DNA from: Euglena gracilis
Taxonomy: Eukaryota
Reading direction: 5' to 3'
NCBI GenBank assembly: GCA_039621445.1
Contig: CP154954.1
Coordinates: forward strand, 21,278,954-21,342,953
DNA: 64,000 nt
The position numbers were made by a program, and so were the translations under genes. The notes beneath the pieces are model-generated. The model did no database searches and was not told the DNA's origin. It saw only the letters and a list, made by a program, of their open reading frames with translations. Positions 6,508 to 62,927 of the stretch are shown piece by piece; position 1 is the first letter of the stretch, and every line of letters begins with the position of its first letter.

Positions 6508-9500
6508 GGCTTCTGTTCCGCGGGAGCAGATCGGTGCGCTGCTGGAGGCGGAGAACCTGACAGTGGGGGCCGAGCTGGGGGTCCAACCCAGGGCTGGGCT
6601 ATGGATCTCCCCACCCGGGACTTTGGCTGTTTTTTTGGTTCACACCCGTAATGGTCAATCAATCTGACCAAAAAAATGAGGGGGAAGGTGTGCATTTTAG
6701 CCCTGCCACTCCAGCCATTTCAGTGCCGGAAACGTGTGCGCCTGCAAGTCCCGCCCTCTAACTTCGTTGTGCTTTTTGGGGGGGAGTGGGTTACCTCTAT
6801 TGTTCGCAAGACTGCACACAAAGGACAATTGACTCTTGGATACTGCCATTCCCGAGAACCCATCAAGCTCCAACCTGGGAAACTGCCAGGGCCGAGCTGG
6901 GTTCCCGGCGGACCTGTCATCCGGTCGAGGTGGTCACGGCCCCCAGCACTAGTCTCCGGCCCAGCCCCGCCCCCGGAGGGCCTCTTTGCCGCCCAAACCC
7001 TCTCGCAGTGGCCCGCCTGCCGGCGGTACTACCTCGTGGACCTGTGGCGGCCCCAGGAGAACTACGAGGAGCGCGCCAACGTCCCCCTCGCGCAGCAGGA
7101 GCGCCACCTGCGCAACGCGCGCCGCCGCCCACGGCTGTGGGTCGGCCACCGTCCTCCTGTGCCCGAACACACACTCAAACGTGTTCACATGTGAACGTTT
7201 TGGGCAATCCATTTTTACAGCTGTGTTTTTTTAGTGCTTTTCGAATTTTGCAGAATTTTTGTTTTTTTGGTTTTCTTGCAATTTTTTTCCTGACAATTTT
7301 TTTTATATCTCTGCTAGGTATTTTTTAGAGAAAATTTCCGATTTTCGGATCTCATTTTTCCCTGAGACCAAAAGTTTTGTTGATTTTTGTCGTTTTTTTT
7401 TCCGAATTTTTTTGCCAACAAATTGCATTCTTCTGACGCAGCATGTTCCCAAAATTTAACCAAAAATATCTGCACTGACTTTTTTCTGGAAGCACAGATC
7501 ATGCATTTCAGTGCCAGTTCGCCAGCCTGACAACCTTTGACCATGGGTTTTCCTGCACTGAAATGTTTTCTGGCAGGACAAATCATACATTTGAGTGCCA
7601 GGTTGCCATGGGGTGGGTGGCCCTCCCATACAGCCCTCCTCCCAGGTGTGGGCTGGTCCATATGTTCCCCAAGGAAACTCATTTTGCAAGGAACTGGGGG
7701 CAGGAATATGAGGCGGGTGTATTTTTTTATATTCAACACTTTTTGTCCCCCCTCCCCGTGCTGACTTCACAAATTTTGGTTGAATTTATCTGATGATTAT
7801 TTTTTTTGGCATTTTAGCAGGCTTTGTCAAGAAATGAGGATAAACCTGTTTGCATTTTCCCTGATGATGATGGTGGTGGTGGTGATGATGATGATGGTGA
7901 TAATAATAATTTGCCTTTCACAAGCCCTGTACACAAGTATGGCAGCTGCAGCAATTTGGCAACCCATATCATCATCAGCAGCAGCAGCAGCATCAGCATC
8001 AGCATCATCATCATCATCATCATCATCATCATCATCATCATCATCATCATCATCATCATCATCATCATCATCATCATCATCATCATCATCATCATCATCA
8101 TCATAGTCATCATTGCGAGCTTCTGCCTTTTGATACAGACTTCATTCAGTTTTAAAACAAAACGCTTTCCTTGGTTCAAATTCGCCAAAAGCATCTTGCC
8201 AAGGTTTCACAGGAACGTCAAAATCATTTGTACTACAGCGCCAACAAGGTCTCAATGCAGCTGCAGTTGCTTGCTTGTGGCATTGCCATCCTCCTCGGGG
8301 GGAGAGGGGGTGGGTGGGTCTGTGGGTCCGCCGGAACCCCCTCTTGCCTCCGAGGGGGGGGGGGTCCCGGCCGGAGGCTTGGGTATGGATTTTGGCGCGC
8401 AGAACCAAATTTTTTTTTGAGGAAATGCCTTTAGACAGCCCGATTTTGGGAGTGGGGGGGACCCCCTCCCCCCTGGGGTCTTAACAAGCAGCCTGTCCTG
8501 GGCTTTCCCGTGGGAAAGGAGAAAGTCTTTCATTTTGCGAAAATGGTTTCCTCGTTTCATTGGATTTGTATGCATTTTTTTTGAGAGTCTCCCTCAACTT
8601 CCATTGTTTGATAACTCTCTCCCTGACCTCTTCCCCATTGCATTTGCATGAATGACTTTTTCCCGGGCATTTCTTCACATGTTTGTGTGATTTTGATTTG
8701 ATTTTAATTTTGCCTGATGTGTGATTCTGGCCGTTTCTTTCTCCAGACTTGGACAGGCCAGCCACGTTCTGGTTGTTGCTTTTTTTGCGCCCAAACCTGC
8801 CACGGCTGTGCCCGCTGACTGCGACCCTTCAATGACACGGTGGTGTTCCTCCGGATGTCCACCAGCGAGGCGGCCAACCATATCCCAGACACCGCAGCCG
8901 CGTTTTCGGTGCTCGTGCCATGGAAACGCTTGCAAGCTTTCTTTGTGCTAGCGGTGGCTCATAGTAGCGCAGGAGGGTGCTGTAGCCAGAACGATGCTGG
9001 ACATCGCCAGGGATGTTTCACAACACCTTTTGCGGCTGTGGCAGGTCTGGAACAGTGGCCGCCACTCCAAACCGGGGCTGTGCCTCGAGTCCCTCGACTA
9101 CGTCTACATCGATGCCCGGCACGACTACTGCGGGGTGAGCGAGGACCTCCGGAACCACTGGCCCAAGCAGGCTTGTGCTTAGTCGGGTGCCTACCCCACG
9201 GGGGGGGGGTGCTAGGGGCAGGCACCCCATAGCACCCACCCCCCTCGCCGGTTGGTAAGCACAAGCCTGGGCCCAAGGTGCGGCCGGGGGGCATCTTCGC
9301 TGGGCACGACTTCTACTTCGCCAACCACTCCATCCTGGGGAAAGACGACTGACGGGGCGGCCACCGCATACTGTTTGGCCGTGGTTGAGAGACGACTAGA
9401 TTTCAGGGGACTCTGATCCAGTGGGTAATTCTCAAACATAATGGAACGCAGTCTGCAAAACCCTGGCCTGGTTGCCGCAAAAGGCTGCAGGAATTCTCTC

Positions 9501-61893: not shown

Positions 61894-62927
61894 ACCCCCA
61901 CGTGACACCGCGCTTGAGAATGCGCTGCGTGTGTTGCGCACTGTCCCGTTCGCTGTTGTCTTGGAGGTGCGGGACGCTCGCATCCCACGGTCAACACACA
62001 GGGAGCTCTGGCACCCCATTTTTAAATCAATTTTGAGCTTGACGAGGGCAGGACCACAAGAGCTGCGCTCCTGCAATGTGCGGGGGAGTGTATGCTTTGT
62101 TTTCGGCCCGAGGCCATGGGCTCAGAAGAGCAAAACCCCCTCTCAATATAAGCTCCCCCAATATATACACCGTCCAAATATAAGTCCCCCCTCCGATGTG
62201 CAAGCAGATGATGGTGCCATTCAGGAAATTTGGGGTGTATACCACATTTTTTTCCTCCAGAAATGCTCCCTTCTGGATAAAATTGCACATTTTTGTTGAA
62301 AATAGGAGGTGCACAACGAAAATTTGGCATAAAGTTGGTATTTGGCTGCAGTTGAAGACCGCCAATTTTTATAGTCCACCCAGAACGTTTGATTCCCCTC
62401 CCCCCCCCCAATTATATTGCCCTCCCCAGAGGGTATTGAAATTGGATCACATAGGGCTTGTTGATTGCGACGATAAAGCAGGGAGCATCCGAACGGGGGG
62501 GGGGGGCATCCAATTGAATCGCCCGGACCACGGCTGGACGGAATCCCCAAACCCCTGTGGATGGTGGGTGGCCTTTCCGCCTTTTCCGGGGGGTGCCAAT
62601 TTTTAGCCCAGAATTTTCCGTCGGCGCCACCGGGCAGTGCAGTGCTGTGATGGGGGGTCGCCCCCCCCCCACCTCCCGGCTGGGGAGGTCGACCGCCCTC
62701 CCGCCCGGCCATCCAGTGCCGCCCTGCCCCCCCCCCATTTCTTTCAGTCGTGTGGCAGTGGGGGGGGGGGGGCTGCTGGCCCCGGCCTGTCCCCCTGCGG
62801 CCGGCCCACCCGCTGATCGGCAAGGTGGCCCGCCAGGCGGCGGTCCACTTCGTGGTCTTCACCCATGCGGACCTCCTGCCCCCCGCGGAGCTGCAGCGCG
62901 TCACCCGCTGGGCACTGCAGGAGGCCC
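61894..62927 (+). CDS. RbgA/YlqF/MTG1-like GTPase, paralog B (partial; probably continues past the window)
   Basis: Exons ~61894-61995 (DTALENALRVLRTVPFAVVLEVRDARIPRST) and 62803-~62927 (AHPLIGKVARQAAVHFVVFTHADLLPPAELQRVTRWA), joined in frame across the nonconventional intron 61996-62802. Clearly homologous to paralog A. Confidence 0.75.

Follow-up and report, generated by a model that had tools for sequence, protein, structure and literature searches.

The nonconventional (NC) introns of euglenids follow a published code, 5′-N3-CDG...CH′G-N5-6 with R as the next exon nucleotide, in which the donor spacer of 3 nt is strict and the acceptor spacer of 5 nt tolerates one more (Nomura 2025, PMC12501133). 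The signature is present in 61.2% of NC introns, which make up about 72% of all introns in Euglena agilis (Nomura 2025). Their origin is called unclear in the same paper, and descent from MITEs (miniature inverted-repeat transposable elements) has been a hypothesis since Milanowski 2014 (PMC3935182), which noted that euglenid genomes had so far yielded no identified transposable element. A 2024 review (PMC11282704) restated this origin with the labels "TIR" (terminal inverted repeat) and "TSD-like" (TSD, target-site duplication), and it recurs in Nomura 2025 and in a diplonemid study (PMC12621601). At a strain-specific gapC intron of E. agilis, Milanowski 2016 (PMC4770533) described eight-nucleotide direct repeats, longer than those of other introns, and suggested break repair. 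Here, we analyzed 64,000 nucleotides of Euglena gracilis DNA, which we read as nuclear (contig CP154954.1, positions 21,278,954 to 21,342,953; the window), in which one intron of a class I methyltransferase gene is a multicopy MITE that is spliced from RNA, and in which further elements carry 8-bp TSDs.

The introns of the window resemble the euglenid NC introns described previously (Milanowski 2014, 2016; Nomura 2025) in their non-GT-AG borders, a helix that opens at +4 and at −6 or −7, a preference for CAG/CTG, a purine at the start of the downstream exon, and junction repeats within which the cut can slide. Nothing essential separates the two; what the window adds is the membership of one intron in a repeat family and a tie between TSD length and the sum of the two spacers. 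The introners of Micromonas, dinoflagellates, Amoebophrya, and tunicates (PMC11282704) are likewise MITE-like elements with TIRs and TSDs that lie in exons and are removed from RNA, so that gene function survives. However, introners are, according to that review, removed by the spliceosome through splice sites made by the element or its TSD, whereas here the euglenid NC code applies and its 3/5 offset takes out the equivalent of a full 8-nt TSD. In the literature searched, from which supplements and many journals were outside the scope, we found no paper in which a euglenid transposable element family is named as serving as an intron, the spacers are linked to an 8-bp TSD, or the hAT superfamily comes up.

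The clearest case is the fifth intron (i5) of the methyltransferase gene (gene 1; Table 1). An RNA raw-read run (X21), a set of probable transcriptome contigs (X15), and two DNA assemblies (X1 and X4) were mapped to positions 8110 to 17000, and all read evidence is confined to this interval, which lies between the intron at 6586-6974 and those beyond 17000. The i5 joint, 9159>9270, skips 110 nt with an 8-nt ambiguity and was present in 17 X21 reads and one X15 contig but in neither DNA sample (0 in X1 and X4). Any cut inside the 8-nt repeat yields an identical mRNA, and what is removed from RNA is the element at 9168-9269 together with exactly one TSD copy. The element occurs elsewhere as well: loose ends starting exactly at 9168, with differing flanks, numbered 49 among the contigs of X1, 33 among those of X4, and 21 among the X21 reads, and the summed X1 depth of the bin containing the MITE was 819,855 against approximately 140 to 175 in the adjacent bins, a figure that is not a calibrated copy number and that we take to mean a very large number of close copies. 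In X1 and X4, contig pieces run into the MITE from both flanks, which places it at this locus in both samples. The fold of the intron is a hairpin that leaves 3 and 5 nucleotides free at its ends (z = −4.7). The intron at 9165-9274 is thus a genuine multicopy MITE spliced from RNA. A second copy of its 5′ end (CAGGCTTGTGCTTAGTCGGGTGC, exact over 23 nt) lies at 47047-47251, and no 3′ TIR to match it occurs in the window; this copy is truncated or else belongs to a longer relative.

The remaining introns of gene 1 were placed with the help of P0001, a transcript-derived protein of 288 aa (EukProt EG_transcript_18523; precomputed Pfam family PF13578), which was found with a 42-aa translation of 9686-9811 and matched it at 100% identity over the exonic 71% of the query. 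Every start/end pair that reproduces P0001 was enumerated, and where a junction can slide, the position fitting the code was chosen, which somewhat favors the register; the 3′ end of the gene (11570) is our own reading. Removal from RNA is documented by read joints for i4 and i5, by read clips for i3, i9, and i10, and by the protein for i1 to i8. Euglenid NC introns are expected to leave as full-length circular RNA independently of the spliceosome; among the read joints listed, none was a back-splice. A helix leaving 3 free nucleotides on the 5′ side and 5 to 6 on the 3′ side was present in nine of the ten introns, as well as in the intron at 61996-62802 of a GTPase gene described below. Six had it at spacers of 3/5 (i2 with one A.C mismatch followed by 10 pairs, i4, i5, i7, i9, and i10) and three at 3/6 (i3, i6, and i8); i1 had neither. 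By comparison, a helix of at least 5 bp at 3/5 or 3/6 arose in 3.2% of 200,000 random start/end pairs. A purine (G or A) opens the downstream exon in 14 of 14 tabulated introns, including all 13 with the register, and no tabulated intron had GT/GC-AG borders (AC..CC, AC..TC, AA..CC, GA..CC, and others). The CDG...CH′G motif itself was less regular: it was exact in i5, i7, i10, and 61996-62802 (CAG/CTG or CGG/CCG), contained a wobble pair in i8 and i9, and was absent or shifted in i2 (CAG/CCG), i3 (CAC/GTG), i4 (GCA/TGT), and i6 (GGG/CCC).

These placements extend an earlier sequence-only reading of the window, which had listed eight introns, put three of them exactly at a +4/−6 register with no TSD left and three more within about 1 nt of it, and assigned retained TSDs to the other two. 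Five of the eight are confirmed, two by RNA reads, two by the transcript-derived protein, and one by homolog collinearity; with 6586-6974, 8891-9086, 9165-9274, and 9351-9683 among those checked, nine of the ten introns of gene 1 are now placed in register by P0001 or reads. The eight are best explained as euglenid NC introns under the known code, two of them being putative as introns and one doubtful. "+4/−6" and "within 1 nt" are correct and amount to a rediscovery of a known splicing rule. The exact register with loss of the TSD is borne out for 6586-6974, 8891-9086, and 61996-62802 (TSD-like identity, given throughout as matches out of 8, of 2/8, 1/8, and 1/8), the first with its A.C mismatch. 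The near-register helices also exist, at +4/−7 (9351-9683), at +3/−6 or +4/−7 (35005-37842), and at +4/−5 (43592-43850), of which 35005-37842 is doubtful as an intron. TSDs are indeed kept at 9165-9274 (8/8) and at 47946-50093 (7/8). That reading had named cDNA junctions inconsistent with the register as grounds for refutation; the junctions of gene 1 fixed by reads or protein fell within it in nine of ten cases, and a majority of introns with junctions outside the register was not observed.

Individual introns of gene 1 add detail. Intron i1 begins with AAC followed by CAG, and its 3′ end offers neither a CTG partner nor a helix at 3/5 or 3/6; it is either an outlier to the splicing code or conceals a small exon. 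The ends of i2 read ACC, CAGGGCTGGGC...GCCCAGCCCCG, CCCCC, and its helix opens at +4/−6 with 11 pairs, the second of which is the mismatch. At i3, which contains an (ATC)48 array (7968-8113), 24 reads were clipped at 8812, which fits a joint of 7127-8816 given one mismatch at 8816. Taken literally, the clip would give 7122-8811 and an in-frame TGA (8816-8818) after splicing; the listed read rows alone do not separate the two, and we dropped the literal version in favor of 7127-8816, which agrees with P0001 in encoding Arg at this point and has the N3/N6 register before a G. The i4 joint, 8889>9086, skips 196 nt with a 1-nt ambiguity and was seen in 23 X21 reads with 21 start places and in one X15 contig (0 in X1 and X4); X1 depth at i4 was 175, and DNA depth at i4, i6, i8, i9, and i10 was that of single-copy sequence. 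Intron i6 has a perfect 12-bp helix at +4/−7 and a TSD-like identity of 3/8.

To place i5 among the inverted repeats of the window, we took a census of elements flanked by direct repeats. Outermost perfect inverted pairs of at least 9 bp, 40 to 6000 bp apart, had flanking direct repeats of 0 (1461 pairs), 1 (635), 2 (166), 3 (52), 4 (14), 5 (5), 6 (4), 7 (3), and 8 nt (5), and none longer. The five 8/8 cases compare with 0 to 1 in a shifted-flank control and with 1 match in total over 20 Markov shuffles. A relaxed scan (CA...TG ends and a TIR of at least 12/14), with the other 6/8 rows and any pair within the tandem arrays at 17747-18177 or 59739-60203 set aside, found seven elements at 8/8 (2395, 4748, 9168, 20514, 33080, 40806, and 52101) and one at 7/8 (49175). 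A motif search added two at 7/8 (34604-34850 and 47949-50088, the latter with unequal ends, CAG.../...CTA), for a total of seven at 8/8 and three at 7/8. TIR identity ranged from 14/14 to 12/14 across eight elements, and the termini were CAGGG, CAGGC, CAAGC, or CATAC, apart from the unequal pair. MITEs of the hAT superfamily have 8-bp TSDs and termini such as CAG/TAG, with the terminal motif YARNG. The elements here resemble them in TSD length, in termini such as CAGGG, and in the one unequal pair; they differ in that only some families fit YARNG and no transposase was found in the window (10 ORFs [open reading frames] picked from the 56 of at least 170 aa in the window gave no Pfam family), which makes the superfamily assignment a lead only. 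An autonomous partner would be expected to carry termini of CAGGGG... or CAGGCTTG....

These observations can be joined in a single scheme. In it, the terminal helix, or TIR, draws the intron ends together, and a non-GT-AG pathway excises the intron: on the 5′ side the cut lies 3 nt beyond the helix, and on the 3′ side, in front of a purine, it lies 5 (sometimes 6) nt beyond. The resident elements supply TIR ends of the form CA(G)...(C)TG and an 8-bp TSD. Because 3 + 5 = 8 is the TSD length, such an element landing in an exon would already be a legal NC intron in either orientation and the frame would be restored; for the same reason, the RNA cut out would consist of the element with one equivalent of the TSD, and a symmetric element in either orientation would leave an mRNA with its preinsertion sequence restored. 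The intron at 9165-9274 is such a case. NC introns that share this register but are single-copy and have no TSD would then be older insertions, in which selection for splicing kept the helix while the N3 and N5 spacers (the intronic TSD halves) drifted, and the spacer rule and TSD length may be causally linked. We give a probability of about 0.62 to this reading as a whole, i.e., removal by the NC code, MITEs landing as scarless introns, and older introns as decayed insertions. A further-reaching version, in which the 3 + 5 spacers are a fossil of the 8-bp TSD of hAT-like CAG...CTG transposons, the NC pathway evolved to erase these from RNA, and most NC introns are decayed MITEs, falls slightly short of even odds in our judgment and is offered tentatively.

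Several details are in keeping with TSD decay. Families of the window include members with perfect TSDs (33080, 40806, and 52101) and with slightly decayed ones (34604, 49175, and 47949). In 47946-50093, the only mismatch between the TSD copies is in the N5 half, which would be spliced out. One difference between the i4 alleles of the window and of X1/X4 falls in the N5 spacer (9085), and among the differences listed none falls in the helix. The window contributes an RNA-verified, high-copy TIR/TSD element acting as an NC intron, one concrete case in support of the MITE hypothesis; a census in which CA...TG elements with 8-bp TSDs are common; and the 3 + 5 = 8 link, which makes the MITE hypothesis testable genome-wide by how far junctions slide, whether introns belong to families, and how TSDs decay as divergence grows. 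A further prediction of the link is that such an element can be spliced in either orientation, and it supplies natural cassettes for the existing knock-in assay. By itself, the window does not establish ordinary NC introns as decayed MITEs.

A number of results weigh against the descent of older introns from MITEs. Among introns with junction evidence, TSD-like identity was 8 in i5, 6 in i3 (in CCG-rich sequence), and 1 to 4 in the other nine, where chance predicts approximately 2, and the 6/8 and 7/8 classes of perfect-TIR pairs showed no excess over the shifted-flank control. Introns i2, i4, i6, i8, i9, i10, and 43592-43850 matched none of nine MITEs and nothing else in the window. Three of the ten introns in gene 1 are N3/N6, so that 9 rather than 8 extra nucleotides are removed; i1 lacks a 3′ partner; and the CAG/CTG of i4 lies one position inside the register, while in its minimum free energy fold the partner of the 5′ end is an internal site and the terminal helix does not form (z = −0.67). 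The second claimed intron with a TSD, 47946-50093, has a mismatched closing pair, and its splicing is putative. Moreover, since the splicing machinery demands the register (Nomura 2025), a shared register alone cannot tell a decayed MITE from an intron selected to fit the code. The sequence-only reading had described a continuum of ages from fresh MITE to ordinary NC intron. Its two extremes are present, but the identities between them are bimodal and the 6/8 to 7/8 classes are unenriched: what the window documents is the two ends of what may be a series, and not the series as such.

The strongest competing explanation builds on this gap. It holds that there are two separate classes, with MITEs fitting the NC code by chance and being spliced once inserted in an exon, and most NC introns arising otherwise, for example from conventional introns, an origin discussed in the available passages of Milanowski 2014 (PMC3935182), with the register imposed by the machinery. 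Bimodal identities with no excess of intermediates would follow directly, as would short unique introns unlike any MITE and the misfit of i1 and the N3/N6 introns to an 8-nt model. On the other hand, the spacer sum of 3 + 5 equals the TSD length of the resident elements and the CAG...CTG motif of the code equals their termini, a coincidence that is hard to accept, and the helices of 9 to 12 bp in unique introns exceed the 3-bp motif of the published signature. We consider two unrelated classes unlikely, although they deserve more weight than any other alternative.

Much less probable is a reading of the 8-nt repeats as footprints of double-strand-break repair rather than of transposition, as proposed for E. 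agilis gapC (Milanowski 2016, PMC4770533). In that study, the recent NC intron 4 of strain ACOI 323 carries eight-nucleotide direct repeats, so that a young intron has a long repeat there as it does here. Those repeats were taken as break-repair footprints and the passages available name no repeat family, whereas here family and copy number are shown: the element at 9168-9269 has many copies with the same end in different flanks, and at least eight elements from several families carry 8-bp repeats beside their TIRs. Break repair predicts neither. Finally, it is very improbable that register and TSDs are an artifact of picking boundaries for an open frame plus a stem, even with three of the eight introns unverified, many frames left open by GC-rich sequence, and 1054 inverted pairs to set beside that of 35005-37842, since junctions fixed independently by RNA reads and protein fell in register for nine of ten gene 1 introns against a chance rate of 3.2%.

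Table 1. Elements, host gene, and introns of the window (positions as in the window; N3/N5 and N3/N6, free nucleotides outside the helix on the 5′ and 3′ sides)
Feature	Position	Strand	Structure and evidence
MITE-like element	2395..3271		TSD ATAGTGAC 8/8; TIR CAAGCACCTCTG
MITE-like element	4748..5050		303 bp, CAGGC... ends; TSD TCCCCTGC 8/8; 64 nt upstream of the gene 1 start codon at 5114
Host gene 1, class I methyltransferase	5114..11570	+	11 exons, 10 introns; tblastn of P0001, exons 96-100% identity
Intron i1	5176..6474 (start may be 5176-5181)	+	joint agrees with P0001; CAG at +4, no 3′ partner in register
Intron i2	6586..6974 (or 6587-6975)	+	P0001 reads GAELGVQEGLF over joint; N3/N5
Intron i3	7127..8816	+	P0001 joint; N3/N6; 11-bp helix (CACGGCTGTGG); TSD-like 6/8 in CCG-rich sequence
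Intron i4	8891..9086 (or 8890-9085)	+	RNA joint; N3/N5; 6-bp helix; TSD-like 1/8; single-copy
Intron i5	9165..9274	+	RNA joint 9159>9270; MITE plus one TSD copy
MITE	9168..9269		102 bp; perfect 14-bp TIR CAGGCTTGTGCTTA; TSD GGCCCAAG 8/8 at 9160-9167 and 9270-9277
Intron i6	9351..9683 (or 9352-9684)	+	P0001 reads GKDDW(A/T)LCQ over joint; N3/N6; single-copy
Intron i7	9778..10474	+	P0001 joint; N3/N5, CGGGG/CCCCG; contains high-copy repeat at ~10072-10373
Intron i8	10551..10921	+	P0001 joint; N3/N6; 7-bp helix with G.U pairs
Intron i9	10980..11327	+	P0001 KKRRSSQE and read loose end; N3/N5; 7-bp helix; 5′ of microexon 11329-11341
Intron i10	11342..11492	+	loose end before 11493 in 5 reads; N3/N5; CAGGTTGTG/CACAGCCTG
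MITE-like element	20514..20972		TSD GCTGCCAT 8/8; TIR CATACATCTCT
CAGGGGTTTT-family MITE	33080..33326		TSD CCCTGAAC 8/8
CAGGGGTTTT-family MITE	34604..34850		TSD TATTGGAT/GATTGGAT 7/8
Claimed intron	35005..37842	+	10-bp inverted repeat, no TSD; doubtful
CAGGGGTTTT-family MITE	40806..41047		TSD CTCCCTCC 8/8
Claimed intron in G1	43592..43850	+	6-bp helix at +4/−5 (3/4); splicing putative
Claimed intron in G1	47946..50093	+	element 47949-50088 plus 8 nt; splicing putative
400-bp MITE nested in 47949-50088	49175..49574		TIR CAGGGTTTGATATAAGG; TSD 7/8
Sibling MITE of 49175-49574	52101..52499		TSD TTTGGCCC 8/8; 94-95% identical
Intron in G2	61996..62802	+	homolog collinearity; N3/N5, CAGGG/CCCTG at +4/−6; TSD-like 1/8

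Three of the claimed introns beyond gene 1 fall in two diverged YlqF/MTG1-like GTPase paralogs on the forward strand, at 42861-50194 (G1) and 61877-62947 (G2). In G2, the exons joined over 61996-62802 align without gaps to P0002, the sole match of a representative search (75 aa, 47% identity, E = 1e-22). The P0002 alignment has an 8-aa gap at the 43592-43850 joint of G1 and is uninformative there. Of eight single-exon translations, two, both of G1, matched TIGR03596 (YlqF, NCBIfam) at profile positions 19-47 and 120-141, far under the whole-protein cutoff, as expected for single exons, and the other six gave no match. Neither searches of transcript proteins with the G1 exons 47780-47944 and 44360-44500 nor a search of PDB sequences with the DTPG exon returned a match. 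Across 47946-50093, the joined translation ...DTPGL...EDPELG/FKLFLTG presumably corresponds to the YlqF G3 region, which it resembles, and the flanking ORF has a GC content at third codon positions (GC3) of 0.85. The element within this putative intron has TSDs of GCTGGGCT/GATGGGCT (7/8) and a TIR of CAGGGGTTTTCT/...CCCCTA; a C.A mismatch (CAG...CTA) takes the place of the closing pair, and the 3/5 register holds only past it.

The claimed intron at 35005-37842 is doubtful from its sequence features. Its helix is 10 bp at +3/−6 or 9 bp at +4/−7, and a 10-bp repeat is unremarkable where 1054 non-low-complexity inverted pairs of at least 10 bp within 6 kb occur in the window. The GC3 of its flanks is 0.51 to 0.65, versus 0.85 for the G1 exon, and the downstream ORF matched no Pfam family. 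Both large claimed introns contain an approximately 1.3-kb repeat, 80 to 84% identical and flanked by (TGCAGTTTTT)n arrays, at 36142-37417 and 48240-49944. We considered and dropped the idea that 35005-37842 and 47946-50093 are copies of one element: their common part is this internal repeat, and their ends differ. A copy of the ~1.3-kb repeat at ~37076 lacks the 49175-49574 insertion and has an extra 9-nt indel beside the site.

MITE families other than that of 9168 have only two to four copies in the window. The CAGGGGTTTT family has three to four members there, of which those at 33080, 34604, and 40806 align at a mean column identity of 73%. Coding exons hold only the element at 9168 and, putatively, that at 47949; the five others checked (2395, 20514, 33080, 34604, and 40806) lie in lower-GC, noncoding-looking flanks. 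From its position alone, the element at 4748-5050 might be an intron in the 5′ untranslated region of gene 1.

Gene 1 also yielded observations apart from its splicing register. A microexon of 13 nt (ACGGTCCAGCCAG, 11329-11341) lies between the nonconventional introns i9 and i10; P0001 (RRSSQ) demands it, and the loose end of the reads ahead of 11493 contains it. The window differs from X1/X4 at 8963-9085, 9156, 9372-9398, 9686, and 9714, with a difference of approximately 5% in i4 and few differences in exons. It differs from P0001 at H/Y and T/A, and RNA reads carry both alleles at 9156 and 9714. The differences from X1/X4 and the presence of both alleles in RNA point to two haplotypes or strains, both with the MITE intron. 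Neither P0001 nor the 23-nt end of the MITE matched anything in metagenome scans.

Other repeats in the window are of different kinds. A very high-copy repeat of approximately 300 bp, rich in G/C runs and without CAG...CTG ends, occurs at 10072-10373 (in i7), 37447-37709 (in 35005-37842), and 3506-3769, with an X1 depth of 7 to 9 × 10^5. Over approximately 4 kb at 12862-17000, DNA word depth exceeds that of the single-copy flanks by a factor of 10^3 to 10^5 and RNA reads are almost absent, so that this stretch is probably one large block of repeats; a single ORF of this block sent to Pfam (14415-15059, minus strand) had no match. Tandem arrays include a complex set with 19-, 165-, and 212-bp units at 17030-18713 and a 1.7-kb GT-rich array at 58838-60519.

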